The notes beneath the pieces are model-generated. The model searched no databases, had not been told where the DNA came from, and saw only the letters and a list, made by a program, of their open reading frames with translations. This document shows positions 1 through 12,726 of a stretch of DNA of 12,726 bases, piece by piece. Location of the stretch: IMG/VR virus record IMGVR_UViG_2585427728_000005, one strand, 5' to 3'. The stretch comes from a virus. Its lineage: Duplodnaviria; Heunggongvirae; Uroviricota; Caudoviricetes. Made by a program: the position numbers and the translations under genes. Every line of letters starts with the position of its first letter. Within the stretch, counting starts at the first letter, position 1.

Positions 1-53
1 GGTATCCGTTCTGCTGAAGTGTCATGGCGTTGATTTTACGGTGACTCTTCGAC

Positions 54-83
54 AGTGAAAAGAAAAAAGGCCGCAGAGCGGCC
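54..83 (-). terminator. Rho-independent terminator downstream of the 209..646 gene
   Basis: Perfect GC stem GGCCGC (69-74) / GCGGCC (78-83) with a 3-nt loop; on the minus strand the hairpin is followed by a T-run (plus-strand A-run 63-68). No T-run follows it on the plus strand. Confidence 0.5.
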
Positions 84-208
84 ATAAACACAAGTAAAAA
101 TCAACAAGTTAGATAATTATCAAAGACTTACAGACACACAAAAACACAGCCAACCACAACAAATAACAGGGATGTGGTCACTTTGTGGATCATATCGCCG
201 CCATAAAT

Positions 209-646
209 TTACTTAATAACAGTAACCACAGCCACAAGCACGGCCATCGCAGACAGGACAATACCTGTGAGTAACCAAGTCTGATTTGCAAATGATTTCT
301 GAAGTTCAGTACGATGCTCAGCCATCTCAACTTTCAGAGACTGGCGTAAATCAGCCATCTCAGACTTCAGGGATTGGCGCGATTCTGCCATCTCAAGCCT
401 CAACCCTTCGCGAATCTCCAGTACATCAGATTTGGTAGCAAAGGATTCGCTTCTTGTGGTGAGAGTAATCAGGTTGTTTTTGATTTCAGTCACATCACTT
501 TCCAGGCAACTGACCCGCCGTTCAAGGTCGTCATTCATGCCATCACCTCCATCATTACCACTTCCTGTTACTTGGTTGTTGGATACATTATAGGCATTCT
601 CTTTCTTTTTTCTGAACCGCGAAATATGTGCAACATTCTCTGCCAT
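209..646 (-). CDS. Hypothetical protein with an 11-residue-repeat coiled coil and a C-terminal transmembrane helix; sits where a tail-fibre assembly/chaperone gene would be expected, but is not recognisable as one
   Basis: Open frame of 146 codons from a GTG at 649; the first ATG is at 646. Three 11-aa repeats (EMAESRQSLKS / EMADLRQSLKV / EMAEHRTELQK) and a hydrophobic C-terminus (WLLTGIVLSAMAVLVAVVTVIK). Lies directly downstream of the tail-fibre cassette on the same strand and is followed by the terminator at 54..83. Confidence 0.55.
   Translation of the reverse strand: MAENVAHISRFRKKKENAYNVSNNQVTGSGNDGGDGMNDDLERRVSCLESDVTEIKNNLITLTTRSESFATKSDVLEIREGLRLEMAESRQSLKSEMADLRQSLKVEMAEHRTELQKSFANQTWLLTGIVLSAMAVLVAVVTVIK
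318..416. repeat. Three imperfect 33-bp tandem repeats inside CDS 209..646, encoding the 11-residue coiled-coil repeats
   Basis: Copies begin with tcagccatctc at 318 and 351 and with tctgccatctc at 384; the period is exactly 33 bp. Confidence 0.7.
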
Positions 647-677
647 CACTTCTCATCACCCTGCTTGCCTACCCAGT

Positions 678-1100
678 TCATAAAGGCCCGGGCCGAGTAA
701 CGATGAACAAACCCACATCTGTTACAGGTAAGTCGGAATTCATAGTTATGGATATTTTCCCGATCATGTCCCTCATATCCCGGATATCCCAATTCCATCC
801 AACGGATGTATCACCATTAACAGTATTACCTGTTTGTCGGAGTGCAAATGCATTGACATTTTTGGCACTAATTGAAATATCGCTAGAACCATCAAAACCA
901 ACTCCAGCAATTTTTCGTGCTGTTTTCAGCTTTGTTGCAGTAGCGGCATTGCCGGACAGCTCCCCAGAAAGGCCACCGCTGAATGTTTGTCGATTGGTCC
1001 AGGTATTCGCTGTACTGAGTAACGGTATTTTCTCCCCGCTTGTGCCGAGTTCTCGTAAACCGAGGTTTTGGATAATGGCCGTTTCCGGCCTGCATGGCAT
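678..1100 (-). CDS. Tail-fibre protein C-terminal (variable) cassette with no N-terminal constant domain of its own; probably the invertase-proximal alternative cassette of an invertible segment
   Basis: Contains the conserved tail-fibre motif ATATKLKTARKIAGVGFDGSSDISI that I recall from P2 H, Mu S and P1 S type fibres. The frame is open upstream only to a stop at 1125-1127, so no constant part is encoded on the invertase side. The gix-like site at 1050..1075 lies inside its 5' end. Confidence 0.6.
   Translation of the reverse strand: MPCRPETAIIQNLGLRELGTSGEKIPLLSTANTWTNRQTFSGGLSGELSGNAATATKLKTARKIAGVGFDGSSDISISAKNVNAFALRQTGNTVNGDTSVGWNWDIRDMRDMIGKISITMNSDLPVTDVGLFIVTRPGPL
1050..1075. other. 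gix/hix-like recombination (crossover) site for the adjacent serine invertase
   Basis: TTCTCGTAAACC-GA-GGTTTTGGATAA: two 12-bp imperfect inverted half-sites (9/12 symmetric) around a central GA dinucleotide, about 55 bp upstream of the invertase start. It differs at only two positions from the Mu gix sequence as I recall it (TTCCTGTAAACCGAGGTTTTGGATAA). Confidence 0.65.
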
Positions 1101-1129
1101 GATTTGCGCTTTTGGACGGGAGATTCAGC

Positions 1130-1729
1130 GTGCTGATTGGCTATGTAAGGGTATCAACAAATGACCAGAATACAGACTTGCAACGAAACGCTCTTGTTTG
1201 TGCAGGATGCGAACAAATATTTGAAGATAAATTAAGCGGGACAAAGACAGACCGACCGGGATTAAAACGCGCTTTAAAGCGCCTTCAAAAAGGTGACACG
1301 CTGGTTGTCTGGAAACTGGATCGCCTCGGGCGAAGCATGAAACATCTGATTTCTCTCGTCGGGGAACTACGGGAGCGAGGGATTAATTTTCGCAGTCTGA
1401 CCGACAGCATAGATACATCTTCTCCAATGGGGCGTTTTTTCTTCCACGTGATGGGTGCCCTGGCTGAAATGGAACGTGAATTAATTGTTGAACGTACACT
1501 GGCCGGACTGGCGGCAGCGCGCGCACGGGGGCGCACAGGCGGACGTCGACCGAAGCTGACAAAAGAACAGCATGAGCAAATAGCAAGGCTAATCAAAAAC
1601 GGGCACGACAGAAAACAACTGGCAATAATTTACGGCATTGGCACATCGACGATTTATCGTTATCACCCTGTAGGCGATATACAGACTGAAGAAACAACCG
1701 GGCAGACTCAGGAAAATGAAAACCGCTAA
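1130..1729 (+). CDS. Serine recombinase DNA invertase of the Gin/Pin/Cin/Hin family
   Basis: From the GTG at 1130 the product is 199 aa and begins VLIGYVRVSTNDQNTDLQRNAL, the hallmark N-terminus of Gin/Pin with the catalytic Ser in YVRVST; it also has the GDTLVVWKLDRLGRS and MGRFFFHVMGALAEMERELI blocks and a C-terminal HTH region. A GGGAGA Shine-Dalgarno lies 6 nt upstream of the GTG. The ORF track begins at a TTG at 1112, which is probably not the real start. Confidence 0.9.
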   Translation: MLIGYVRVSTNDQNTDLQRNALVCAGCEQIFEDKLSGTKTDRPGLKRALKRLQKGDTLVVWKLDRLGRSMKHLISLVGELRERGINFRSLTDSIDTSSPMGRFFFHVMGALAEMERELIVERTLAGLAAARARGRTGGRRPKLTKEQHEQIARLIKNGHDRKQLAIIYGIGTSTIYRYHPVGDIQTEETTGQTQENENR

Positions 1730-1749
1730 TCTGACCATTAGCGGTTTTT
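1719..1749. terminator. Bidirectional intrinsic terminator between the convergent invertase and gpU genes
   Basis: Perfect 12-bp inverted repeat aaaaccgctaat (1719-1730) / attagcggtttt (1737-1748) with a 6-nt loop, and A/T runs on both sides giving a U-tract in either direction. The invertase stop codon lies in the left arm. Confidence 0.5.
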
Positions 1750-1757
1750 GTGTAAAA

Positions 1758-2252
1758 TCAGAACAGCCCTTTAACTGAACTGGCCGCGCTGTTAAGAGAT
1801 GATGTCACCTTATCTTTGAAGCCGGACAGCATATCACTGAACGATGAGGATTGCAGGCGCTCCCGCAAATCCTCATCACAGCGTTCAAGGGTCAGTGAAA
1901 ATTCTATCTTTTTCGCCTTACCGTAGCGATCAAACTCGGAACGGGTCGTATTCGTTTCAGTCAGCACATACATGCCGTAAATCTGCCCGACGCCATCAAT
2001 CAGAGGCCAGGGTCGTCCTGTATACGCCTGCGTGGTCAGCAGCGACAGCGATACTTCGCCACCTGTAATTTCAGGATAAAGCACACCAGAAAGAACGATG
2101 CGATCATCTCCTGCACCGATATACTGCCAGCTTGCTGAACGGTTAACGCGTTCATTTTTCACATGCCGCCAGCTTTTGTTTTGCTGTAACTGCTGATGCG
2201 GCAGCGTGCGCAGCTCAAAAACAAACATGCCGTAGATCATCATCATGGCCAT
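1758..2252 (-). CDS. U: P2-type tail protein gpU
   Basis: About 160 aa, immediately downstream of the tape measure gene on the same strand, matching P2 gene order T-U. The N-terminus (MMMIYGMFVFELRTLPHQQLQ) fits my recollection of the gpU family. A GAGGAG Shine-Dalgarno lies upstream; the true start may be the second or third Met. Confidence 0.75.
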   Translation of the reverse strand: MAMMMIYGMFVFELRTLPHQQLQQNKSWRHVKNERVNRSASWQYIGAGDDRIVLSGVLYPEITGGEVSLSLLTTQAYTGRPWPLIDGVGQIYGMYVLTETNTTRSEFDRYGKAKKIEFSLTLERCDEDLRERLQSSSFSDMLSGFKDKVTSSLNSAASSVKGLF

Positions 2253-2258
2253 GACTCC

Positions 2259-5075
2259 TCAATCTTTATCGTAAAAACTGCCACGCCCGGCACGGGCGCG
2301 CCGTTCCATTTCTGCCCTGACCATTTCACCTACCAGTTTCGCAAGTTCGCGGGGATTCTGCGTAACAACGTTATGCAGATGAACATGAATTTCACCGCCA
2401 AATCCGGAGGCAACCGGCTCCCGATTACGGGAAGCTGCAGGAACTGATGCCACTGGCGATCGTATGGCCTCCGCCACCGGGCGGGAGCTGGCCGCAACAA
2501 CAGGGACCAGCGCCGGAGGCAGCGGAGCCGGGACCACGGGTGTGATATTAATTGCGGGGGCAGGCTTACTGACCTGCGCAATCTTCCGCTCCTGCCACTC
2601 CCCACGAACGGCAAGTGCGCGGGGCAGGTTCTTAAAGACAATATCGCCGGGGCCAATGCGTTTTTTCGTCTCATCAACCAGCTTACCTGTGTTATCAGCA
2701 ATTTTGCTGAGTCTGCGCAGCGTACCGGTATTGCTGTCTGTGAGCGGTTTATTGTCTTTGGGGTTATCACCTCCGGTACCATTGCCATTTTCCACAGGCT
2801 TCGGCGGATTGATTTTCGCCAGGTCCCCCTGAAGCAAGGCAACCTTGTCCTGAAGAATGGCCGCACGCTGTGCGTCTTCGATTTTCTTGCGCGCCCTTTC
2901 CGCTTCATCCGGAAGGACGCCAAGTTTTTCAAGTATCCACGCCAGCGTATCCAGCAGCATTTTTGCAGGTGTCAGAACAAGCTGTAACGCACCGCCAAGA
3001 ACGTTACCGAATATCTCGCCAGCACTGGTACATTTATCCAGCGTTTCCTTGCTGGACTCCATCGGTGACAGCAGCGATTTAAACCAGTTAAACACCTGGC
3101 TGATCCCGCTCCCGATTGCGTCAAAAACAGGACCAAACCGTTCAAAAGTTTCGCGCAACGGGGTCAGCCTTTCCATAATCCCGCTGAACACCCCGGCAAA
3201 AAATGCCCTGATGGGATCCCAGTATTTCCAGATAAGAACGGCAGCTCCGGCAAGCGCAGCCACGATAAGACCAACCGGACTGAACAACGCCCCGATAGCG
3301 CCTCCCAGCAAAGAAACGGACCCCGTCACCATTCCCCATAGTGCTGGCAGGACCCTGACAGCATTCATTGATCCGGTCAGGAGAGAAAAACCAAGACGCA
3401 GTTTTGCCAGCGGACCAGCAAGCACACCAATAGCCAGCGACAACGAGCCAACCGTTGCAGTCATTGCCAGCAACGCACCGCCTGCTATCAGTAGCTGGCG
3501 CGTCAGTGCCGGATGGGCCTGCGCCAGCGCCGTCACCCTTGATACCACCCGCGTGAGCCACTGCGTGACAGAACGCAGCGGACCGTCAATCAGATCTGCA
3601 ATGCGGATGCGCAACCCTTCCCATGCACTGCCGAGTGATTTCAGATCGCCGTCAAGGTTGTTGGCCATAACCTTTGCTGTGCGTTCAGCCTCACCGCGCG
3701 CGCCTTCAAGTTCTTTTCTCAGTTTGGGTAAGGAACCGTCACCCGCTGCATCAACGAGCGCCATAAACGATGTGAAAGCCTCTTCTCCGGCAATGTCCTT
3801 AAAGAACGATACCCGGTCAACTTCCCCGTATTTGCGGGTGGCTTTATAAAGGTCGGCCAGCACATCCTCCATCGGGCGCATTTTGCCCCCGGCATCCGAG
3901 ACGGACACGCCCAGCTCTTTCAGAGCTTCTGCCCCCGCCTTTGGCGGTGATGCCAGACGAGCCAGGCTGGCACGCATTGCCGTCCCGGCATCACTCCCTC
4001 TGATGCCCATATTCGCCAGCACGCCAGCCATCGCTGCGGCCTGCTCCAGCGATATTCCCAGCTTCCCCGCCACCGGACCTGCATATTTCATGGTTTCGCC
4101 CAGTGCGCGAAGGTCAGTGTTGGTACGGGTAAACGCTGCGGTGAGTGTGTCACCGACCCGGTCCATCTGGTCAGCAGAAAGGCCGAACTGCGTCAGGATA
4201 TTTGAGCCAATATCTGCCGTCTCGCCGAGATCCATACCGCCAGCCGTTGCCATGCTCAGCACGCCGGGAAGCGCAGCCTGAATGGCCTGCGGAGTGAAGC
4301 CAGCCATTGCAAGAAATGCCTGTCCACTGGCGGCATCGCCTGCGGTGAACTGCGTTTCAGAGCCAAGTTTTAACGCCTGCTCACGCAGCGCTTTAAACTG
4401 CGGGCTGTTCTGGTCGATTCGCGTCAGTGCCTGAACGCGGGACATCTCTTTGCCGAACCCGATCGCAGGCTGCAAAAAACGCCCGGCAGCATAGCCGCCC
4501 GCCGCTGCCGCACCAATTGCCAGCGCACCACCTGTTTTCAGTTTTCCCGCTGTTTCCTGCGCGCGCGAATACCGCTCACGCGCCCGCGTTACACGCGCAA
4601 GCGCCTGCCGTTCGCGTTCAAGCTGGTTGTTGTACTGTTCGGTGCGTCTGATGGCCTGCTGGATGGTGTTATCGCTGCCTGTCAGGGAAATGCCGTGGCG
4701 TTTCAGCTCTCCGCCAAGTTCCCGCATTTTCTGAATTTCCCGTGTGCGCGATTCATTCAGGCGTTCAAGCCGGGTGCTTAACTGCCGCATCAGCTTTTGT
4801 TGTTTTTCGCTGAGCACTGTACCCGTGCGTTGTAACTGATTAAGGGCGTTAAGCTGGCGTCGTGCTTTCAATATGCCAGCATCCGCTTTACTGACAGCGT
4901 CACGGGCGCGCTCAAATGAACGCGCCTGACGCTCGAGATTTTTGATCGCCCCCTGCGTTCGCTGGATGGAGTCACCAAGCTGCCCCATCAGGCGGCGGGC
5001 GTTTTCGGCAGGCCGGGTCAACCTGTCAACGGCGCTGAAAGCGACCCGGATATCAAGAGTCTTCATTATCTGCAT
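2259..5075 (-). CDS. T: Tail tape measure protein (gpT-like)
   Basis: 938-aa ORF with a long coiled-coil N-terminal region and Gly/Ala-rich hydrophobic segments typical of tape measure proteins. It lies between the chaperone gene E/E' and U. The start may be the internal Met at 5066. Confidence 0.85.
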   Translation of the reverse strand: MQIMKTLDIRVAFSAVDRLTRPAENARRLMGQLGDSIQRTQGAIKNLERQARSFERARDAVSKADAGILKARRQLNALNQLQRTGTVLSEKQQKLMRQLSTRLERLNESRTREIQKMRELGGELKRHGISLTGSDNTIQQAIRRTEQYNNQLERERQALARVTRARERYSRAQETAGKLKTGGALAIGAAAAGGYAAGRFLQPAIGFGKEMSRVQALTRIDQNSPQFKALREQALKLGSETQFTAGDAASGQAFLAMAGFTPQAIQAALPGVLSMATAGGMDLGETADIGSNILTQFGLSADQMDRVGDTLTAAFTRTNTDLRALGETMKYAGPVAGKLGISLEQAAAMAGVLANMGIRGSDAGTAMRASLARLASPPKAGAEALKELGVSVSDAGGKMRPMEDVLADLYKATRKYGEVDRVSFFKDIAGEEAFTSFMALVDAAGDGSLPKLRKELEGARGEAERTAKVMANNLDGDLKSLGSAWEGLRIRIADLIDGPLRSVTQWLTRVVSRVTALAQAHPALTRQLLIAGGALLAMTATVGSLSLAIGVLAGPLAKLRLGFSLLTGSMNAVRVLPALWGMVTGSVSLLGGAIGALFSPVGLIVAALAGAAVLIWKYWDPIRAFFAGVFSGIMERLTPLRETFERFGPVFDAIGSGISQVFNWFKSLLSPMESSKETLDKCTSAGEIFGNVLGGALQLVLTPAKMLLDTLAWILEKLGVLPDEAERARKKIEDAQRAAILQDKVALLQGDLAKINPPKPVENGNGTGGDNPKDNKPLTDSNTGTLRRLSKIADNTGKLVDETKKRIGPGDIVFKNLPRALAVRGEWQERKIAQVSKPAPAINITPVVPAPLPPALVPVVAASSRPVAEAIRSPVASVPAASRNREPVASGFGGEIHVHLHNVVTQNPRELAKLVGEMVRAEMERRARAGRGSFYDKD

Positions 5076-5289
5076 TCCCGCTGCGAAGTGCCGCCCGCTC
5101 GCGCCAGCTAACCACTTCGCCGGGCGTCATCATGAAGATTTCGGCGGGCGACCAGTTAAAAATGGCGGCAATATCCGCCACCAGATCTTCGATGTGCTCA
5201 AAGCACACCAGGGTGATTACGCTGCCGTCTCCTGCACGCTCTTCGCGCCAGAGTCTGGCTCGCTCATAAAATTTACAGCCACAGCGCAC
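5053..5289 (-). CDS. gpE' extension: the -1 frame part of the tail assembly chaperone fusion E+E', reached by programmed frameshift from gpE
   Basis: A -1 frame relative to gpE is open from 5319 to a stop at 5053 and overlaps both the 3' end of gpE and the 5' end of gpT, the conserved arrangement of tail chaperone frameshift genes. The slippery heptamer is at 5268..5274. Confidence 0.6.
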   Translation of the reverse strand: MRCGCKFYERARLWREERAGDGSVITLVCFEHIEDLVADIAAIFNWSPAEIFMMTPGEVVSWRERAALRSGNADNEDS

Positions 5290-5591
5290 AACTGAATAAA
5301 ATCGCGTGACGACATTTTTTTAATCATCACTTCATCCAGTCGTGGCGAGGTCACGCGAGGCAACAGCGTGAACATGGTATCCGCTTTCAGATTCAGCACA
5401 TCAGACAGCGACAGACCACGCAGGGATCCAGCCTGCTCAATAGCCCCGGTGATCTCCACATACGTGATTTTTTCGCCACCACGCTCAATTGGTCGGGTCA
5501 GTTTTACGCCACGTTCGACAGCCATATCCTCACCTGCCGTCACATCATCCGCCACGGTGTTATTCCGGGTTTCAGTATCGATGTCTTTCAT
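5217..5591 (-). CDS. E: Tail assembly chaperone gpE (0-frame product)
   Basis: 124-aa ORF between the tube gene and the tape measure gene, with an AAGGAG Shine-Dalgarno 7 nt upstream of the ATG at 5591. Position and the overlapping -1 frame match the P2 E/E' arrangement. Confidence 0.7.
   Translation of the reverse strand: MKDIDTETRNNTVADDVTAGEDMAVERGVKLTRPIERGGEKITYVEITGAIEQAGSLRGLSLSDVLNLKADTMFTLLPRVTSPRLDEVMIKKMSSRDFIQLCAVAVNFMSEPDSGAKSVQETAA
5268..5274 (-). other. Candidate -1 programmed ribosomal frameshift slippery heptamer A_AAT_TTT in gpE
   Basis: In the gpE frame the minus strand reads GTA AAT TTT ATG (V N F M). The heptamer A-AAT-TTT fits the X_XXY_YYZ pattern, and a -1 slip gives AAA TTT TAT (K F Y), which is exactly the sequence of the overlapping frame. 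Confidence 0.4.
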
Positions 5592-5646
5592 CAGTTGTCT
5601 CCTTTTCAGTCAGAGGCGACGCACTGCGCCGCCTGCATATTATTTA

Positions 5647-6159
5647 TCAGCCAAGCCCAAGCGCGGAACGGATACGGTCAGGCACAATGTCCTTGCCGTC
5701 CTTCCGGTAGATGTGGTTCAACAGGTCGATTTCCCACAGCGGGCGATCGTTAACGCTCAGCTTGTAGTAGGTGTTTTTGACAGCGTAAGTGTGTGATGTG
5801 GCTTCACCCTGTTTGGCTTCCCCCATATCAATTTCCGTCACACGCCCGCGCATCTCGATTTCATACAGATCACTTTCTGCATCGGTGTAGTATTCACCCG
5901 CAAAACGCAGCAGCGTGCCGTCAATCGTGCCGCCATATTTAAGGAACAGCTCACGAACTGCGCCCCCCATGACAAAGCTCGCATCAAGCGCGGAGTCGTC
6001 CAGACCGAGATCAATACTTACCGCCCCCATCATGCCACCACCCCGGTAGCTGTCGGTTTTGCGCGTCAGCTTAGGCAGAGTGACGGACGTCACCTTACCC
6101 ACTTCGTTTTCACCATCCACAAACAGCGTAAAAAAGCGAAGATGTTTTGGCACAGCCAT
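5647..6159 (-). CDS. FII: Tail tube protein (gpFII-like)
   Basis: 170 aa, immediately downstream of the sheath gene; the sheath stop and tube start overlap as TGATG at 6157-6161. Size and position match the P2 FI-FII pair. Confidence 0.85.
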   Translation of the reverse strand: MAVPKHLRFFTLFVDGENEVGKVTSVTLPKLTRKTDSYRGGGMMGAVSIDLGLDDSALDASFVMGGAVRELFLKYGGTIDGTLLRFAGEYYTDAESDLYEIEMRGRVTEIDMGEAKQGEATSHTYAVKNTYYKLSVNDRPLWEIDLLNHIYRKDGKDIVPDRIRSALGLG

Positions 6160-7343
6160 CAGGCACCTCCCAGCACCGCAAATGCGGGTTCAAAGTATTC
6201 ATCAGTAAACGTCTGGTAAAGCTCCATGTCTTCCAGTGGCGGAACGGGCGTATATTTGTAGCGAATGCGCACACGCCCCTGACGTAAATCCGTGGTGCTG
6301 TTATCCACCACGTCATACCAGCACTCCGCACCAATCAGTTTCCCGGCAGTAACCAGTGAATCCAGTTTTGCCCTGATGGCACTGATAACATCCTTCACGT
6401 TCGCAGGCGTCAGTGGACTGTCGATGGTTTCAAACTGCGCTTCCGCAATTGAATCAGCCAGCACCTGTGCGGTTCGGGTATACACCTCAAAGATGTAGGC
6501 GTTCGTTTCCGGTGTGCGGTTGCCCCAGAAGCGGAACCCGTTGCGACGAATAATGGTCGTGATTTCTTTGTTGTTGAGGCTGTTGGCATCACTGTCTTCG
6601 GCCTGCAACGACCAGAACACATGCCTGGACATCCCCAGCACATTTTTAACCGGAACGTTGGACAGCGATTTGTGCCAGCCCTGCTCATGGTCAATGTACG
6701 CACGAAGGCCGCACGCATAAGCAGGCGCGGGGAACGTTTCGTTTTCGCCACTTTTCGGGTTGTAGGCGATGAAGTCCGGCCATAAGAGCATCACTTCACG
6801 TTCGTTGAATTTCTGGCGGTAGGTAATCGCTTCAGCCATCGTGTTACAGCCGTGACATGAGGCATACACAAACGCACGCAGTTTACCCGCAATCACGCAC
6901 AGGGATTTTGTCACCGCCTCCGTGTCCAGCTCCGGCGCGGCCAGAATACGCGGACGGTATCCGATGCTTTCATCCTGCTCTGCAACAAGCAGCGCATACA
7001 TCCCCGTATAGCTGCCGTCATCCTCAGAACCACCGATAACCAGTTGATCCTGCGTCTTTTCGTCTTCTTCTTTGTGTTCAGCCACGCGAACGACGATCAC
7101 CTTTGTGCTCACCTGGTCTGCGATGGCCTTAAGCGCACGATAAAGCGTCCCCGTTGTCCCGCATTTTCCCAGCACGTCATTGACGCGGGTCAGCAGTGTG
7201 GGCTTGTTCAGCGGGAACAGCTTCGCGTCCGCATCATCCGCCGTTGCCACGATACCGATAACACTGGAATCAACATCATTAATCGCTGTTACCAGGTCGG
7301 TATTTTCCGTAACACGGGCACCATGAAAACGAGTTTCACTCAT
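6159..7343 (-). CDS. FI: Contractile tail sheath protein (gpFI-like)
   Basis: 394 aa (P2 FI is about 396 aa), first gene of the FI-FII-E-T-U block, with an AAGGGG Shine-Dalgarno upstream of the ATG at 7343. Confidence 0.9.
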   Translation of the reverse strand: MSETRFHGARVTENTDLVTAINDVDSSVIGIVATADDADAKLFPLNKPTLLTRVNDVLGKCGTTGTLYRALKAIADQVSTKVIVVRVAEHKEEDEKTQDQLVIGGSEDDGSYTGMYALLVAEQDESIGYRPRILAAPELDTEAVTKSLCVIAGKLRAFVYASCHGCNTMAEAITYRQKFNEREVMLLWPDFIAYNPKSGENETFPAPAYACGLRAYIDHEQGWHKSLSNVPVKNVLGMSRHVFWSLQAEDSDANSLNNKEITTIIRRNGFRFWGNRTPETNAYIFEVYTRTAQVLADSIAEAQFETIDSPLTPANVKDVISAIRAKLDSLVTAGKLIGAECWYDVVDNSTTDLRQGRVRIRYKYTPVPPLEDMELYQTFTDEYFEPAFAVLGGA

Positions 7344-7500
7344 AGCTTCAGCCCCTTGTATCCGTTAAATGATTCGGCAACAATCATCACCCACCACGCG
7401 CGTAATCTCACCCCTGCGCCGTTCTCCCGACCCGGCGACAACAAAAAGCAGTAACCCCCTCCGCACGCACATGCGACCATGCCACACAGGGAGGGAACAG

Positions 7501-8610
7501 ATGACCGATACCACCATGCAATTGCTCAGTCAGGGCACAGACCCCGTGAAAATGCCGGATTTTGATATTCTCGCGGAGGGTAAAACGCTGTCAGGCGTGG
7601 CAGAGCGCCTGATGACCCTGTCACTGACCGACAACCGGGGATTTGAGGCGGACCAGCTCACCATCACGCTGGATGATGCGGATGGTCAGTTGCAGCTACC
7701 GCAACGGGGCGCGCGCCTGACGGTTCTCATTGGCTGGAAAGGCGAACCGCTGACAGAAAAAGGCACTTACATTGTTGATGAAATCGCACACGAAGGACCG
7801 CCGGACAGGCTGACTGTTTCAGCCAGAAGCGCAGATTTTCGGGATGAATTTAACGTTAAACGTGAGGTGTCCTGGCATGATGTGACCGTTGAGCGTGTGG
7901 TATCCGCCATCGCTCATCGGTATGGTCTGAAACCGCAAATCAGCGAAATGCTGATGGATATCGAAATCGACCACGCCGACCAGACCGAAGAAAGCGACAT
8001 GTCCTTCCTTACGCGCATGGCGGAAATGCTGGGCGCAATCACCACGGTAAAAAGCGGTAATCTGTTATTCATCATGCCCGGTGGTGGCGTGAACGCACAG
8101 GGCCAGCCGTTGCCCTCGTTCGCCATCACGCGCAGCAGTGGCGATCGCCATCAGTTCCGCATTGCTGACCGCGAAGCGTATACGGGTGTACGCGCCTACT
8201 GGCTTGATCTTAATTACGGGAAAAAGAAAAAAGTCAGCGTGAAACGCCGCAAACCGCCAAAACCCAAAAAGGAGAAAAGCAGCAGCCGTGAAGGTGATTA
8301 TATGGAAGGCGCGGAAGGAAATGTGTTTGTGTTACGCAAGACTTATCAGAACGAGCAGGCAGCAAGACGCGCAGCGGCGGCAAAGTGGCAGCAGCTACAA
8401 CGCGGAGCCGCATCATTCTCCATCACACTGGCTCGTGGACGCGCAGAACTCTACCCCGAAATGCATGGCACGGTAACAGGATTTAAAAGCGAGATTGATA
8501 ATCAGGACTGGATTATTGCGAAAGCCGATCACACCATTGATAACAGTGGCTTTACCACGCAGCTTGAGCTTGAGGCAAAAATCCCGGAATGGATAGCGGA
8601 AACAGAGTGA
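7501..8610 (+). CDS. D: P2 gpD-like tail protein (late control D family)
   Basis: 369 aa from the ATG at 7501, which has a strong GGGAGGG Shine-Dalgarno 5 nt upstream; the ORF-track start at 7369 is probably too far upstream. Size and sequence character fit the gpD family, and it lies upstream of ogr as in P2. Confidence 0.8.
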   Translation: MTDTTMQLLSQGTDPVKMPDFDILAEGKTLSGVAERLMTLSLTDNRGFEADQLTITLDDADGQLQLPQRGARLTVLIGWKGEPLTEKGTYIVDEIAHEGPPDRLTVSARSADFRDEFNVKREVSWHDVTVERVVSAIAHRYGLKPQISEMLMDIEIDHADQTEESDMSFLTRMAEMLGAITTVKSGNLLFIMPGGGVNAQGQPLPSFAITRSSGDRHQFRIADREAYTGVRAYWLDLNYGKKKKVSVKRRKPPKPKKEKSSSREGDYMEGAEGNVFVLRKTYQNEQAARRAAAAKWQQLQRGAASFSITLARGRAELYPEMHGTVTGFKSEIDNQDWIIAKADHTIDNSGFTTQLELEAKIPEWIAETE

Positions 8611-8657
8611 GCAACTGGGATGCATTAGTTCAGACACGGGCTAGCATGCTTACGTAC

Positions 8658-8700
8658 GGCACAGAAGCAAACCTAATTGGAGTTTTGCTCTGTGCCTTTC
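8658..8700 (+). terminator. Possible terminator hairpin downstream of gpD
   Basis: Imperfect 14-bp inverted repeat ggcacagaagcaaa (8658-8671) / ttttgctctgtgcc (8683-8696) with one bulge, followed by only a short TTTC tract. Confidence 0.3.
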
Positions 8701-8820
8701 ACCGATTGGCCAAGTGTAACCCGCCTTACACCAAGACGAATTATAATTGGCAACAATGTCAGTAGTTACTATAAATGTTTATAAACAAAGATTTATTTCT
8801 CCGAAGCTACAAGCACTACA

Positions 8821-11613
8821 CTAAATCTCAGCAATCTTTTTTTTACTGTGCTGTTCTATTATCAACTCTGCTTCCGCTTGGTATTCATGAGCTAACTCTC
8901 GAAGAATTCGGGCAAATCGATGAAAGCCTAGAAGTTCCATTGCATCAGACTTAGTGTGATATTGTTGGGCTAACTCCAATTCCGGTTTACCTTCTGGGTC
9001 AACAATGTAGACACCACGCGAATTTATTATCGCATTCTTATAACCAGTACGCACTTTATCAAGTTCACGTCTATTCAAAAACTCGGCCAGTTCTGGAAGT
9101 ATCCAATGCTCGTCATTTGCAGGGCTAAAAATTAATATGCTTCCAATCCTATGATAAGCAAAATCTAAATGGCCTGACTTTTCGCATTCTGTTTGGACAA
9201 AATCAAACCAGTTATTAAACGCCTTGACATCAAACTTGCCTTCAGCATCAACACCCGGAATCTTTTTCCAATCATCAAGTAAATAGAGTGAGTTTTTGGC
9301 AATATTTATTTCACTTTCAGATAGTTCTTTACTTGCTTTTTGAAATTCTGATCGATACGCATATTGAATGACTTCACAAAAAAAACTGGGTTCACTTGCA
9401 AGTTTTTTCTCTAATACTTGAGGATGCAACGAATCATTAGCCCCCCTGTTAATTACAGGTAGGTATGCCCATTCAATCTTTACTAAGTCGTCATCTGAAA
9501 CAGTGTTATCATTTTGAATATAATTCACAAGTTCATTAAATGAGTGAATATCAAACCGCTCAATATTTTCTGTGGTTCTAATTGATTGCAATAGAGCAAG
9601 CACAACCTTACTGCTATCAACTGAATTATCGATATGCAAAATTTTAGATAAACAATCTATTGCCATCAAGGGACGGTCTACTTTAATCAAGCAGTCTATA
9701 GCAAAATAAATTTCTTCCGTTGAATCACAGCTGTATGCATTAACAAGAGTATTTTTCCAATACTCGAAAGGAAAATCATCAAATGAAGCGTTTAATGCAT
9801 CCCATGTTTCTTTTTTAAACGGTAACAAAAGAAAAAAAGCAATCTTTTCTTGAGCACTCCAGTCATTAATAACTGTCAACACCCATGATTTTCCTTCTCT
9901 GTAGTTTTTAGCCTGTACATAACCAGAAGCAAGAGAATTTTCCTTTTTAATATCACTAACAATAAGTTTTTTCAGTATATCTAAAGGAATTTCTAGATCT
10001 TCTGCGACCAGGCTACTACCAACAAACTCAGGCCTTTCAATAGATAGAGAGAATTCTAAGACTCCATCAATACCATTAATAGCATATATTTCGCATATTG
10101 ATTGCCCTCGTTCTTTTGTCAACCTTTCTTCTTGGTCCCGCCAGTTTCCATTTTCATCAAATAGGAAGTAATTGTTTTGTGCAAAAAGTCGCTTGCTATA
10201 AAGCATAGGATCTTCGGGCTTCAAGACTGTAGAAACATCTTTGATTTTTTCATTTTGTTCTGGTTGCATTGCCCAATAAGCACCTGAGAATCTTTTGTTT
10301 TTGTTATAAACTTCTAAACATTTTTCCCACACCGCTAACTTCAATTCAGCACTATCTGTTTTTTTAGAAAAATCATACAATAGTTTAATTGCATCATCGA
10401 ATTTAAATGGCGCTAAACTACCAATATTTTCAACTAAATCAACAAGTCTTAATGATGATTTACTTGCCAATTCAATTGTTAATTGAGTGTATATTTCAAT
10501 CTGAGTACGGCACTCATCACCCGATGGCCTTTTATTAAAACCGTTAGGAATAAAGTTTCTAAAAGTTGGAATATGTGTGCCAGATGTTACTTGCGTGTTG
10601 TTGGGTAGCAACTGAACTAAAACACGCCATGCTGTATCGGGCCACTCCCTTGCCAATGCGTTGAAAGCAGCAATACGTCTATCTATATCAGCTGTAGTAT
10701 GAGGAAGCCATGGTAACAATATGTTGATTATCGAGTTAAGTGGCCTGTTAGCCCAATTGCCACCAGGATCATGGCTATCCAGCTCCCCTAATATTACTAA
10801 AGAGCGAGATAAATAGTTAGGCGCCCAAGCTAATCCTTCAATAGCCCATAGCAGTCCTGTCATATAATTCCGACCTGAAATTCCACCGATACCTTCCTGT
10901 GCAAAAAGTGAATCAAATGGCTTGTCTTGGTGAGATGCAGCATTTTCCACTTCGTCGATAAAACAGTCAGGAGCACTTTCCGCAAGCATAACTTGAATAT
11001 CTTGCGTACTAGCCCATAATTGCCAGCTAGAAGCCGAAAAAACCTCTTTAACCACACTTGAGGCGCAATATTGCCCTTTATATTTTGAGCAATTAGTAAG
11101 TAACTCTTGCTTTGTTGCAACTAATGCCAACCCTTCGGATAGTCCTTTCCTTATTAATCGGCTGTGTGGTAAAACCTTCCCATAAATTACTGCTGCATAA
11201 CGCTCTTCAGGTGCCAGTTCAAATTGTGGGTCGATAGTTTTAAAAACGGATACAACAGTCGTCCGAAACAAATCCAAATGATCATCGAATAATCTTGACG
11301 ATACCGTTTGAAATGTTTGTATTCTATCTTTAAAACTCCAAGAACCTCTCTCATGAATCAAAGGACTATCTTGCATCCCTTCAATTATTCTTAATTTTCG
11401 AATCCAACTGTCATATGACTCGCTAATAAGGCTTGTAATTATATCAATATCACCATTATTTTTTTCATCCCAGCAACCGACTAAAACAGCAATCGCTAAC
11501 TCAGTCGCATAATCAACATTATCACTATTGTATACAATTAAGTTACCAGCAACATTATGGCCTGTTCCGGTATGATTTTGACTAATTGAACTGCAGCTAT
11601 GAATGTTATCCAT
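8821..11613 (-). CDS. Large (~930 aa) protein of unknown function; second gene of the AT-rich cargo operon between D and ogr
   Basis: Uninterrupted 2.8-kb ORF in AT-rich DNA, where long open frames are unlikely by chance. ATG at 11613 with a GAGG Shine-Dalgarno 8 nt upstream; the ORF track starts at a GTG at 11619 that overlaps the upstream stop. I see no Walker A, HExxH, HNH or RT motif and cannot assign a family. Confidence 0.85.
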   Translation of the reverse strand: MDNIHSCSSISQNHTGTGHNVAGNLIVYNSDNVDYATELAIAVLVGCWDEKNNGDIDIITSLISESYDSWIRKLRIIEGMQDSPLIHERGSWSFKDRIQTFQTVSSRLFDDHLDLFRTTVVSVFKTIDPQFELAPEERYAAVIYGKVLPHSRLIRKGLSEGLALVATKQELLTNCSKYKGQYCASSVVKEVFSASSWQLWASTQDIQVMLAESAPDCFIDEVENAASHQDKPFDSLFAQEGIGGISGRNYMTGLLWAIEGLAWAPNYLSRSLVILGELDSHDPGGNWANRPLNSIINILLPWLPHTTADIDRRIAAFNALAREWPDTAWRVLVQLLPNNTQVTSGTHIPTFRNFIPNGFNKRPSGDECRTQIEIYTQLTIELASKSSLRLVDLVENIGSLAPFKFDDAIKLLYDFSKKTDSAELKLAVWEKCLEVYNKNKRFSGAYWAMQPEQNEKIKDVSTVLKPEDPMLYSKRLFAQNNYFLFDENGNWRDQEERLTKERGQSICEIYAINGIDGVLEFSLSIERPEFVGSSLVAEDLEIPLDILKKLIVSDIKKENSLASGYVQAKNYREGKSWVLTVINDWSAQEKIAFFLLLPFKKETWDALNASFDDFPFEYWKNTLVNAYSCDSTEEIYFAIDCLIKVDRPLMAIDCLSKILHIDNSVDSSKVVLALLQSIRTTENIERFDIHSFNELVNYIQNDNTVSDDDLVKIEWAYLPVINRGANDSLHPQVLEKKLASEPSFFCEVIQYAYRSEFQKASKELSESEINIAKNSLYLLDDWKKIPGVDAEGKFDVKAFNNWFDFVQTECEKSGHLDFAYHRIGSILIFSPANDEHWILPELAEFLNRRELDKVRTGYKNAIINSRGVYIVDPEGKPELELAQQYHTKSDAMELLGFHRFARILRELAHEYQAEAELIIEQHSKKKIAEI

Positions 11614-11618
11614 AGACA

Positions 11619-11939
11619 CTACCTCGTAATTTTATTTCCACCAATATTATCACCAGTGCCACTATGGTTTTGAATAATGACAGTTGCTGCATGAGGTTTT
11701 ATAGACGAGAGTATTTTTTGAATTTCACTACTATCCAATAGTTTTCTTTCAATTGCTATTTCACTCATTTCATCGTTCAAAGACAGTTTTTCAAGCTCTT
11801 TAGCTAAAGCAGGGGCTACAGCCTCATCAACAACCCAATTTTTTAACTTTTCTTTTATTGAAGTTGCAGTAATCGAAACATGATGTTTAAGCATGTCATA
11901 AACTATGCCAGAAAGTATCGTCGAAGATAAAAAATCCAT
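11619..11939 (-). CDS. Small (106 aa) predicted helical protein of unknown function; first gene of the cargo operon
   Basis: ATG at 11939 with an AAGGGA Shine-Dalgarno 8 nt upstream. Its TAG stop (11619-11621) lies 6 nt from the ATG of the large gene, suggesting translational coupling. The C-terminus carries the motif QNHSGTGDNIGGN, which is also present at the N-terminus of the large protein. Confidence 0.75.
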   Translation of the reverse strand: MDFLSSTILSGIVYDMLKHHVSITATSIKEKLKNWVVDEAVAPALAKELEKLSLNDEMSEIAIERKLLDSSEIQKILSSIKPHAATVIIQNHSGTGDNIGGNKITR

Positions 11940-12075
11940 AACAATTTTCCCTTAACGTAAGATATTTACTATCAAGATACATTTTAAATCGAAGAAAGAG
12001 CTTTTACCACGTATATTTATTGGCTAATAACATGATAATTCGACTGTCTGCTATTCGCTTAAAACGAAGAGTTTG

Positions 12076-12104
12076 TTGGAATTATAGCCAGCACGACCTA
12101 GAAT
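12076..12104 (+). promoter_or_regulatory. Candidate sigma70-type promoter for ogr
   Basis: TTGGAA (12076-12081), a 17-bp spacer, then TAGAAT (12099-12104), about 30 bp upstream of the ogr ATG. The region is AT-rich, so this could be a chance match. Confidence 0.25.
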
Positions 12105-12134
12105 AACATCAGCACTGCGTTAAGGGAGGTCGCT

Positions 12135-12395
12135 ATGTTCCGTTGCCCGCTTTGTGGCGCATCTGCCCGCATCCGTACCAGTCGTCCGGAAAATGATTCA
12201 AATACCGTGCGGCAAAAGTATTACCAGTGTAACAACTTGGAATGCGGCGTCTGCTTCTCAACACTGGAAGCTTTCCATAAGTTCACATCAAAACACGCCT
12301 CAAGTGTTCACTCTTCAGAGGGTATCCCGTGGCATGCTCTGCCTGCTTCACACAGGGGAAACAGTCAGATGAGTTTGCCCTTACCTCAGGATTAA
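12135..12395 (+). CDS. ogr: Ogr/Delta-family zinc-finger late gene transcription activator
   Basis: N-terminus MFRCPLCGASARIRTSR...YYQCNNLECGVCF carries the C-x2-C...C-x4-C zinc finger and aligns with P2 Ogr as I recall it (MFHCPLCQHAAHARTSR...YHQCQNVNCSATF). A GGGAGG Shine-Dalgarno lies 5 nt upstream of the ATG. It lies downstream of D as in P2. Confidence 0.85.
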   Translation: MFRCPLCGASARIRTSRPENDSNTVRQKYYQCNNLECGVCFSTLEAFHKFTSKHASSVHSSEGIPWHALPASHRGNSQMSLPLPQD

Positions 12396-12455: not shown

Positions 12456-12719
12456 ATGGTCGGAGGGAATACCCGAAGGCCAGATGTGGAAAGGCCCCGG
12501 AAAACATTTCTGTTTAACCGAGGCCCTAACCGCATTACCTTGACAAGTGAAAGGTTAGCGCCTCTCCGGAAAAGGAGCAAGTGCTATGTCGCAAAAATCG
12601 CTTACGGCCATCACGTTCTGCGTGACGGCAATCCTCATCATCTGGATGCTGCACGGTTCGCTGTGCGAAATACGGATGAGCTTCTGGGGAGCGGAGTTTG
12701 CGGCGTTCTTACAGTGTAA
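12456..12719 (+). CDS. mok-like overlapping leader ORF of the hok locus
   Basis: An 87-codon frame that begins upstream of the hok-like gene and overlaps almost all of it in a different frame, as mok does in hok/mok/sok loci. Assigned by position only. Confidence 0.3.
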   Translation: MVGGNTRRPDVERPRKTFLFNRGPNRITLTSERLAPLRKRSKCYVAKIAYGHHVLRDGNPHHLDAARFAVRNTDELLGSGVCGVLTV

Positions 12720-12726
12720 GCAGTAA
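12586..12726 (+). CDS. hok: Hok/Gef-family type I toxin (small membrane peptide)
   Basis: 46-codon ORF, too short for the ORF track: MSQKSLTAITFCVTAILIIWMLHGSLCEIRMSFWGAEFAAFLQCKQ, ending in TAA at the last base of the window. It has an N-terminal TM helix, the conserved SLCE(I/L) block and an E-x-AAFL-x-CK tail that resemble HokA as I recall it. An AGGAG Shine-Dalgarno lies 8 nt upstream. Confidence 0.75.
   Translation: MSQKSLTAITFCVTAILIIWMLHGSLCEIRMSFWGAEFAAFLQCKQ

Follow-up and report, generated by a model that had tools for sequence, protein, structure and literature searches.

Amyloid-signalling gene pairs and the gpD-ogr cassette

Among described systems, the closest to the locus analysed here is Bab/Agp of E. 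coli ECOR25 (Ibarlosa et al., 10.1101/2024.11.07.622273; structure PDB 9h9v), where, as here, the small gene comes first and its partner adjoins it. Bab and Agp are each non-toxic alone at moderate levels and toxic when co-expressed; strong overexpression of Bab alone is also toxic, and Agp is needed for tag assembly upon infection (10.1101/2024.11.07.622273). GAPS6, from Vibrio GMT islands, was tested for phage protection and is counted only when both of its proteins are present (Mahata et al., 10.1101/2023.03.28.534373). In the tested Bab/Agp and GAPS6 systems, Bab is the component that kills the cell, and anti-phage activity of the Bab/GapS6a family has been described in two experimental reports (10.1101/2024.11.07.622273; 10.1101/2023.03.28.534373). 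On comparison, GAPS6 is a pair of the Bab/Agp type: GAPS6a and Bab share 65% identity, and a fragment of GAPS6b matches the TGP (TPR-GreA/B-C-PIN) PIN model and the GapS6b model NF047936 (1.7e-45). To our knowledge, Bab/Agp is so far the single worked bacterial example of amyloid templating as an immune signal. Its sensor was reportedly picked because it had already been predicted to read RNA polymerase.

We analysed a 12,726-nt stretch of a P2-like prophage (IMG/VR record IMGVR_UViG_2585427728_000005), referred to below as the window. Two intact, closely spaced minus-strand genes, the small one first, lie between gpD and ogr (Table 1). As judged from sequence comparison, they probably join a known effector to a new sensor.

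The first-pass annotation had read this region as AT-rich, foreign-looking DNA separating gpD from ogr, horizontally acquired at a prophage accessory position. Both flanking genes were correctly named, and the comparison with the tail genes bears out the foreign composition: GC content is 36.2% in the cassette (8697-12074) against 53.2% in the remaining window, and GC3 is 0.28 and 0.23 in its two genes against 0.58-0.60 in tail genes. Acquisition as cargo is further supported by relatives with differing contents. Homology of the window to three related E. coli prophages holding different cargo ends at 8639, 8677 and 8696 and resumes at 12050, 12067 and 12075 (blastn); the cassette edges are hence approximate (left 8640-8696, right 12050-12075). 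Within the same breakpoints related E. coli prophages carry a DUF2971 protein, a PIN-domain protein or a GmrSD endonuclease. The D-ogr interval is a variable cargo site of P2-like prophages whose contents are often defence-related. The pair is not core to related P2-like phages, being carried by 7 of the 1,552 E. coli genomes with the same flanks, and no cargo-free D-ogr junction was seen among the 30 best related genomes listed. A hok/gef toxin gene adjoins the pair in the prophage. Other copies are found on plasmids and beside a probable relaxase gene. The GenBank phage collection gave no DNA match, and no Rfam family reached its gathering threshold anywhere in the window.

Table 1. Features of the gpD-ogr cassette and its flanks (window coordinates)
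Feature	Position	Strand	Basis or remark
gpD (tail/baseplate hub), left flank	7369..8610	+	Pfam Phage_GPD 5e-17, phrog_52 1e-165
Inverted repeat, 15-nt arms, 9-nt loop, just past gpD stop	8658..8696	.	Repeat search
Variable cargo cassette, gpD to ogr	8697..12074 (approximate)	.	blastn breakpoints and GC
Large gene, 930 aa, disordered N-terminal tag and all-alpha solenoid body	8821..11613	-	Proposed sensor or scaffold
Large-protein N-terminal tag, aa 8-26, SSISQNHTGTGHNVAGNLI	11536..11592	-	Likeness to small-protein C-terminus
Small gene, 106-aa Bab/GapS6a-family effector	11619..11939	-	Pfam, NCBIfam and PDB matches; ATG start
Small-protein C-terminal tag, aa 86-104, TVIIQNHSGTGDNIGGNKI, BASS11-type	11628..11684	-	Motif conservation and GAPS6a alignment
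Tentative extended -10 element TGgTAAAAG, candidate promoter of the cassette	12001..12009	-	Citrobacter conservation
ogr, late-gene activator, right flank	12135..12395	+	Pfam Ogr_Delta 5e-14, phrog_603

Both cassette ORFs lie where they were first placed. The large one is 930 aa from its ATG; the program-made ORF list extends it to a GTG at 11619 (932 aa). The close spacing of the genes was correctly noted, but not the gap of 6 nt: 5 nt separate the TAG stop (11621-11619) from the ATG at 11613. A GAGG Shine-Dalgarno sequence is present at 11625-11622, 8 nt ahead of this ATG, and the spacer between the small gene and ogr is 195 bp (11940..12134), as annotated. A promoter scan brought out no clear sigma-70-like promoter in the spacer and no enrichment of promoter-like sites (9 against 11.5 expected). 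A Citrobacter copy, which adjoins a large ORF read as a relaxase, keeps about 130 bp of the sequence ahead of the small gene. This copy has TGgTAAAAT in place of the window's TGgTAAAAG, a tentative candidate for the cassette promoter that the scan did not call. At the other end, the inverted repeat is probably the gpD terminator, although a terminator scan called none, this repeat included; it coincides with the left edge of the cassette, where homology to the other-cargo prophages stops. The palindrome TGTTTATAAACA (8776-8787) noted downstream of the genes is real but not a meaningful feature, the window containing 7 perfect palindromes of 12 nt (3.0 +/- 1.8 in shuffled sequence). Both family matches of gpD (Pfam Phage_GPD and phrog_52) begin at aa 43, and its true start is probably near 7501.

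The small protein and the shared tag

The small protein is, by sequence, a clear Bab/GapS6a homolog. It comprises an N-terminal 'Babybell'/HetE-N helical domain and a C-terminal BASS11-type tag. Pfam HetE-N (7e-39) and NCBIfam GapS6a (NF047935; 5e-40, 136 bits against a cutoff of 90) match its full length, and PDB 9h9v 'Babybass' matches aa 1-83 (1.2e-18). Identity to Bab is 52% across the first 82 residues, and the Bab residues reported essential, D2, G11, Y14 and D15, are kept. Comparison with Citrobacter gives a dN/dS of ~0.35 for the small gene. In RefSeq, an identical locus has the small gene annotated gapS6a and the large protein as 'hypothetical'; PADLOC matched neither window protein. 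The earlier view that neither protein belongs to a characterised family thus fails for the small one, whose family includes a solved structure, and stands for the large one. Since the small protein is a Bab/GapS6a homolog, and anti-phage activity of this family has been reported twice, the system is not wholly undescribed.

The tag QNHSGTGDNIGGN at the C-terminus of the small protein returns as QNHTGTGHNVAGN at the N-terminus of the large one. Between the last ~20 residues of the former and residues 5-26 of the latter, 12 of 22 positions are identical (pairwise E = 3e-6), and the sub-threshold NCBIfam GapS6a match of the large protein falls on this tag. The likeness had escaped the first-pass annotation. 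The small-protein tag also aligns with the GAPS6a tag NIGSVTQNHKGSGDNIVGN. Its residues Q90, D97 and N98 correspond to Bab Q92, D99 and N100, and N20 of the large protein corresponds to Agp N12. When Bab carries Q92P, D99A or N100P, foci formation or function is lost (10.1101/2024.11.07.622273).

Conservation of the pattern Q.H.G.G.N extends to 45 of 46 homologous small proteins and 37 of 42 short-form homologs of the large protein. One difference is systematic: effectors carry Asp (G-D-N, 45/46) where large proteins carry His (G-H-N, 37/42). The tag is shared in 13 homologous pairs whose large proteins are 45-81% identical. For this BASS11-class tag, identity is only slightly higher in true pairs (0.49) than in mismatched pairs (0.45), too small a difference to demonstrate fine-scale co-evolution of the two tags. 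In the AlphaFold model of the large protein, residues 1-24 have pLDDT below 50, which points to a disordered tag.

The large protein and its relatives

The large protein gave no match to Pfam or to PDB sequences (single sequence and profile), and none to NCBIfam besides that at the tag. PADLOC 2.0 contains no model for it. The first-pass reading that P-loop, HExxH and YxDD motifs are missing was confirmed, a motif search finding no Walker A, HExxH, YxDD or DEAD. Its AlphaFold model is an all-helical solenoid matching only generic HEAT/ARM repeats. No ligand- or nucleotide-binding site can be recognised in the body, and unlike NLR partners it lacks an NTPase that could drive assembly. Homology to phage structural, replication or housekeeping proteins was not found: the sole PHROG match is a family of unknown function, viral structures (BFVD) gave no match at E <= 1e-3, and tblastn gave none in 50,697 GenBank phage records. 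As far as the databases and literature searched show, the partner protein is undescribed; the novelty first claimed for the whole system thus holds for the large partner and not for the small effector, which belongs to the known Bab/GapS6a group.

Relatives of the large protein form a large unannotated family; at 50% identity it comprises 6,808 clusters. Members of the body family come from both bacteria and archaea, and most lie in settings other than phages. In long relatives a fused effector domain replaces the tag at the same position. These domains include a SIR2 of the short-pAgo type (PADLOC 6e-122, Pfam SIR2_2 4e-13), an LmuA/Cap4-like nuclease (3e-32), SLFN_AlbA_2 and HTH. A further one has alpha-beta-beta-beta-alpha-beta topology and is read as a restriction-endonuclease core, with E22, D62-D63 and Q82 invariant and K84 near-invariant. 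PADLOC on long relatives detected the fused effector domains only, apart from a sub-threshold match within one body (that of L045). Avs3 was the top Foldseek PDB match of the long form, a weak one (TM 0.14) that we do not take as kinship.

A Vibrio/metagenome subgroup carries a different tag motif, SQNVGDNSTALQVGDNAQ, on the large protein. Its upstream gene encodes a 64-aa protein with one hydrophobic stretch, read as a transmembrane segment, and ending in the matching motif VQKVGNNSSANQFGDNAN (13/26 and 15/26 identical to the large-protein tag). New tag and matching new small protein occur together, and tag and effector therefore appear to swap jointly on a conserved body. On this sequence evidence, the layout of the family is that of a putative sensor with exchangeable outputs.

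Proposed mechanism, alternatives and related systems

We propose, with a probability of roughly 60%, that the cassette encodes a two-component system for abortive infection, of the Bab/Agp (GAPS6) type but with a different protein in place of the sensor. This reading follows from a Bab-family small protein and a tag shared with a large helical-repeat protein. The 930-aa alpha-solenoid protein would sense a phage cue and assemble, gathering its disordered N-terminal BASS11-type tags. The gathered tags would adopt a cross-beta (amyloid-like) fold and template the C-terminal tag of the 106-aa Bab-like protein, whose N-terminal helical domain would then attack the membrane. The infected lysogen would be killed or arrested ahead of completion of the phage cycle. 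For this pair we infer the anti-phage activity, amyloid formation, signalling direction and trigger; what the sequences and models show is effector homology, the shared tag, purifying selection on the pair, the unrelated partner fold, effector fusions and the hotspot context. Points against the proposal are the body's lack of an NTPase or a recognisable binding site, the barely raised tag identity in true BASS11 pairs, the weak promoter evidence and the absence of relatives of the large protein from the GenBank phage collection. Of the undescribed defence or abortive-infection module initially suggested, the makings are thus supported by effector homology, shared tag and variable cargo site, but not the novelty of the whole.

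The shared tag could act instead in restraint, the large protein keeping the small one inactive by tag-tag binding in a toxin-antitoxin-like manner until infection destroys or titrates it and frees the killer. The Asp/His difference between the two tags (45/46 and 37/42) could favour such a stable heterotypic contact, some distant body relatives are annotated as HigA-type antitoxins or HTH regulators, and Bab alone is toxic when strongly overexpressed (10.1101/2024.11.07.622273). We nevertheless consider restraint unlikely, as Bab/Agp is toxic on co-expression and not as single proteins at moderate levels, Agp is needed for tag assembly, and effectors fused in cis at the tag position fit cis-control better than sequestration. 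Less probable still is a role outside defence, in lysis timing, superinfection exclusion specific to P2 relatives or prophage addiction, with the tag a gene-fission remnant that does not signal. The membrane-active type of the small protein and the neighbouring hok/gef gene would suit such a role. Against it stand the rarity of the pair (7/1,552), which argues against a core phage function, its presence on plasmids and beside a probable relaxase gene, and a body family found mostly in non-phage contexts of bacteria and archaea with SIR2 or nuclease effectors. The tag is moreover kept across large proteins of 45-81% identity and swapped in concert in the Vibrio subgroup, and viral proteins offer no structural match to the large protein.

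Gene order, a GapS6a-like partner gene and the N-terminal tag would equally be expected if the large protein were a very divergent GapS6b/Agp and the locus an ordinary GAPS6. This we regard as highly improbable. The GapS6b model NF047936 gives no match to the large protein at E <= 1 and scores 879 and 1276 bits on control TGP proteins; Pfam PIN-TPR-GreABC and GreA_GreB do not match either. The hhalign probability is 0.3%, and BLASTP likeness to a TGP/GapS6b protein is limited to the tag (9/15 identical). The AF2 model has few, very short strand stretches, and no beta-containing domain of PIN or GreA-C type is seen. Divergent-TGP identity was rejected on these grounds (BLASTP, hhalign, family models and fold). 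The locus has a small protein above the GapS6a cutoff but no GapS6b component, and is therefore not GAPS6 under the both-protein rule of its authors.

A sensor-swapped Bab/Agp-type system would attach a Bab-type effector and tag to an unrelated, enzyme-free helical-repeat protein, whose family elsewhere exchanges the tag for fused NADase or nuclease domains. Whether the ~900-residue alpha-solenoid body defines a large unrecognised immune-sensor family, with an exchangeable output that is either a fused domain (SIR2, nuclease or HTH) or an amyloid-type tag of ~20 residues recruiting a separate membrane killer, we judge to be an even bet. If it does, amyloid signalling would be a portable connector in prokaryotic immunity, serving at least three unrelated receptor classes (NLR, TGP and alpha-solenoid), with at least two tag/effector sets on the alpha-solenoid body alone. 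Should the pair protect against phage, a widespread sensor family would join the known defence repertoire, and the tag would be a modular plug linking sensors and killers. It would also offer a compact 3.4-kb E. coli system, in its native prophage context, for amyloid-switch nucleation by a receptor that lacks an NTPase. Present annotation tools would give an orphan gapS6a gene here and overlook the system.

Like Bab/Agp, the pair is E. coli prophage cargo with a BASS11-type tag at the effector C-terminus and the partner N-terminus. The Bab/Agp partner is a TGP protein, whereas the 930-aa alpha-solenoid has neither a PIN nor a GreA-C domain and outside the tag is not detectably homologous to Agp-type proteins; the cue it would sense must therefore differ from that of Agp. 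Avs and DSR2 are effector-plus-repeat sensors. Compared with these, the large protein has no STAND module and no specific match to any solved defence sensor. TGP systems likewise combine a constant C-terminal body with varied N-terminal effectors (REase, SIR2, others, or HetE-N; Kaur et al. 2021, PMC8195603), on a body from a family different from the unannotated one here. In bacterial Bell/BASS-NLR pairs, known mostly from multicellular bacteria, the receptor is a STAND NTPase (NACHT/NB-ARC) carrying TPR or WD repeats, whereas the large protein is without an NTPase and its hosts are unicellular Gammaproteobacteria and their mobile elements. Fungal HET-S/NWD2 and Bell/BASS-NLR pairs (Dyrka et al., 10.1101/2020.01.06.895854) nonetheless follow the same logic as proposed here, in which the C-terminal motif of a membrane-targeting effector is matched by the N-terminal motif of an adjacently encoded receptor.

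The small protein and the shared tag

The small protein matched Pfam HetE-N over its full length (7e-39), the NCBIfam model 'antiphage GapS6a' (5e-40, over cutoff) and the crystal structure 9h9v 'Babybass' (1.2e-18). The first-pass annotation had assigned it to no characterised family; judged by sequence, it is an effector of the known Bab/GapS6a family. HetE-N was presented as an uncharacterised effector domain joined to TPR-GreA/B-C-PIN ('TGP') proteins (Kaur et al. 2021, PMC8195603). Bab (109 aa) and Agp (a 1094-aa TGP protein), of E. coli prophage origin, are reported to have the amyloid-forming motif BASS11 in common and to confer abortive infection protecting against T5 and some other phages. 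BASS11 assembly upon T5 infection depends on Agp, and function is abolished by the beta-breakers Bab N100P and Agp N12P and by N-terminal helix mutations G11K, D2A, Y14A and D15A (Ibarlosa et al., bioRxiv 10.1101/2024.11.07.622273). Bab residues D2, G11, Y14 and D15 were retained in the small protein, and Q90, D97 and N98 of its tag (a short BASS11-type motif) occupy the positions of Bab Q92, D99 and N100. Mahata et al. (bioRxiv 10.1101/2023.03.28.534373) give the cloned GAPS6 sequence in their Supplementary Table S3, from which it was taken. GAPS6a was 65% identical to Bab and a GAPS6b fragment matched the TGP-specific PIN model (6.8e-8) and NCBIfam GapS6b (1.7e-45), indicating that GAPS6 and Bab/Agp are the same kind of system.

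Residues 83–104 of the small protein (HAATVIIQNHSGTGDNIGGNKI) aligned with residues 5–26 of the large protein (HSCSSISQNHTGTGHNVAGNLI), with 12/22 positions identical (E = 3e-6). In the structure model, residues 1–24 of the large protein are disordered. Of 46 homologous small proteins, 45 have the core pattern Q.H.G.G.N, as do 37 of 42 short-form (~930-aa, tagged) large proteins. Thirteen further gene pairs were assembled: 12 have a ~930-aa partner (Citrobacter, Sedimenticola, Psychromonas, one other genome, plus eight contigs from metagenomes), the remaining one has a TGP partner, and in every case the tag is on both proteins. Within this class, tag identity was only marginally higher for true pairs (0.49) than for mismatched pairs (0.45), so no claim of fine-scale co-evolution is made. 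In nearly all cases effector tags have G-D-N where sensor tags have G-H-N, including in the TGP pair (L002). The position corresponds to small-protein residue 97 (about 11649–11651) and large-protein residue 19 (about 11557–11559). This Asp/His difference may carry some meaning, perhaps as a charge-complementary ladder favouring hetero-stacking.

A variant subgroup, to which one Vibrio cyclitrophicus genome and one metagenome contig belong, was also found. Here the large protein starts with a different motif, SQNVGDNSTALQVGDNAQITLYE, and the gene directly upstream encodes a 64-aa protein with a single hydrophobic stretch, probably a transmembrane segment, and the C-terminal end VQKVGNNSSANQFGDNANVTINKK. 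This ending was identical to the large protein's motif at 13/26 and 15/26 positions in the two loci. Since tag and small protein swap together, the conserved body (the ~900-residue remainder of the large protein) bears whichever tag the neighbouring small protein bears. This concerted swap is stronger evidence for tag pairing than identity within the tag class.

Features of the window and of related loci (positions are those of each locus)
Feature	Position	Strand	Remarks
Recombinase/invertase gene	about 1130-1729	+	just upstream of tail block, as are tail-fibre-assembly fragments
Tail operon FI-FII-E-T-U	1758-7343	minus	
gpD	7369/7501-8610	+	two possible starts
Large gene	8821-11613	minus	930 aa; 932 aa from GTG overlapping upstream stop
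Small gene	11619-11939	minus	ORF, 106 aa, between gpD and ogr
ogr	12135-12395	+	
hok/gef-family toxin gene	12586-12726	+	after ogr at prophage end; region 12456-12726
Variant pairs	L087 5001-7823 and 4835-5029; L088 2338-5341		~940-aa homolog and 64-aa protein
Distant body relatives	L092 2136-6200; L093 152-4264		Rhizobium and Shewanella plasmids; 1354-1370 aa

The large protein and its relatives

The large protein matched nothing in Pfam; a control TGP protein adjoining another HetE-N gene matched PF20698 and GreA_GreB. NCBIfam GapS6b, against which TGP proteins score 879–1276 bits, likewise returned nothing. BLASTP against a TGP protein aligned the tag alone, and profile-profile comparison with TGP gave 0.3% probability. 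The AlphaFold model (pLDDT 80.3, pTM 0.74) was nearly all helical with few very short strands, and therefore no PIN or GreA-C domain was seen. Pfam, NCBIfam, BLASTP, profile-profile comparison and predicted fold together rule out Agp/GapS6b. Single-sequence and profile searches of the PDB found no solved relative, and BFVD no viral structural match. A motif check bore out the earlier reading by eye that Walker A, HExxH, YxDD and similar motifs are absent.

In this large, unannotated family, clustering at 50% identity leaves 6,808 representatives, of which 3,804 have E ≤ 1e-30, and there are 387 species-level genome loci from bacteria and archaea; the source names seen were all 'hypothetical'. 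The body always lies at the C-terminus, behind a variable N-terminus. The N-terminus is extended at 70 species-level loci, of which 57 carried a ~285-aa domain of modelled alpha-beta-beta-beta-alpha-beta topology, with E22, D62–D63 and Q82 invariant and K84 near-invariant, which we read as a putative restriction-endonuclease core. The others carried a ~380-aa domain for which no family was named (7), a ~184-aa domain just under the Pfam cutoff for DUF4145 (5), or SLFN_AlbA_2 (1; 2.6e-15). Other relatives of the body bear a SIR2 domain of short-pAgo type (PADLOC 6e-122) or an LmuA/Cap4-like nuclease (3e-32). In more distant, plasmid-borne relatives (~25% identity over full length) an XRE-type HTH domain sits at the N-terminus, and their annotations read 'HTH transcriptional regulator' or 'HigA family antitoxin'. 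From these architectures, the predicted layout is a module for sensing or regulation whose outputs can be exchanged. The short form has the tag in place of the output domain, and its effector is a separate gene.

The D–ogr interval

Both minus-strand ORFs described in the first-pass annotation are present. The TAG of the small gene is followed after 5 nt by the ATG of the large gene, with GAGG 8 nt upstream of that ATG. The foreign, AT-rich composition proposed for the cassette holds, at 36.2% GC versus 53.2% outside and GC3 of 0.23–0.28 versus 0.58–0.60 for tail genes. A 12-nt palindrome to which attention had been drawn (8776–8787) exists but is not unusual (7 in the window versus about 3 expected). 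Relative to the Citrobacter copy, dN/dS values of about 0.22 (large) and 0.35 (small) point to purifying selection on both genes. Comparison of copies showed ~130 bp of upstream DNA accompanying the pair, within which lies a possible extended -10 element.

Searching 5,426 complete E. coli genomes for gpD/ogr/hok recovered these flanks in 1,552, only 7 of which carried this cargo, all at ≥99% identity. Other genomes held DUF2971, PIN-domain, GmrSD endonuclease or another hypothetical gene at the same breakpoints; in these prophages homology to the window stops at 8639–8696 and restarts at 12050–12075. D–ogr is a variable cargo site. The pair is thus not core to all relatives, in keeping with its proposed accessory status. 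The left cassette edge coincides with an inverted repeat (8658–8696, 15-nt arms) directly after the gpD stop; the repeat is probably the gpD terminator, although a terminator scan did not call it. Defence hotspots of P2 were surveyed in 2026 and placed at GpA-GpQ, downstream of GpL and on the integrase side; D–ogr is not named in the passages covered. The pair is also plasmid-borne elsewhere, and a large ORF adjoining another copy was read as a putative relaxase. An unrelated genome carries a Bab-like and 931-aa pair (L005/L006, 6001–9134) just downstream of tail sheath, tube and tape-measure genes; the pair therefore recurs as cargo near tail modules.

The window is a section of a P2-like prophage tail module. 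Canonical P2 gene order is FI..U-D-ogr; here the FI-FII-E-T-U block (within 1–7343, minus strand) is inverted with respect to gpD (7369–8610, plus strand). The recombinase/invertase gene and tail-fibre-assembly fragments resemble the arrangement of invertible tail-fibre segments. At its N-terminus the gpD ORF is extended by 44 residues (7369–7500) without homology, and RefSeq gives only 267 aa ('VgrG/Pvc8 family') in near-identical genomes, with a pseudogene fragment upstream; in this lineage gpD may start at another position and may not be intact. A mok-like ORF overlaps the hok/gef-family gene, at which the window stops, and no hok/sok RNA came up in an Rfam scan of the window at gathering threshold. 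The prophage of one complete genome terminates shortly past ogr and a hok/gef gene, adjoining ihfA-pheT-pheS. The Vibrio variant copy likewise adjoins pheT-pheS.

Proposed mechanism and comparison with known systems

We favour (probability about 0.6) a model in which the large protein would detect a phage cue and assemble. Its clustered tags would then form a cross-beta template converting the tag of the Bab-like protein, whose helical domain would damage the membrane and cause abortive infection. We infer every step beyond the shared tag from Bab/Agp and HET-S/NWD2. That the large protein instead acts in restraint, or like an antitoxin, seems unlikely, and a role outside defence, the tag being vestigial, is more improbable still. 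That it is a divergent GAPS6b is effectively refuted.

The effector half of this locus is already known; for the family of the large partner, no description was found in PADLOC 2.0, Pfam, NCBIfam, PHROG annotations or the literature covered. Joining the amyloid tag to a third and very widespread class of receptor would be of interest to specialists, and E. coli allows a direct test of it. Bab/Agp and GAPS6 share effector, tag and predicted mode of working with this locus but differ in the second component, the partner here being neither TGP nor GapS6b. Bell/BASS pairs are distinguished by their NLR, which this locus lacks. The large-protein family as a whole has a parallel in TGP (Kaur et al. 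2021, PMC8195603), likewise a constant module with exchangeable outputs.
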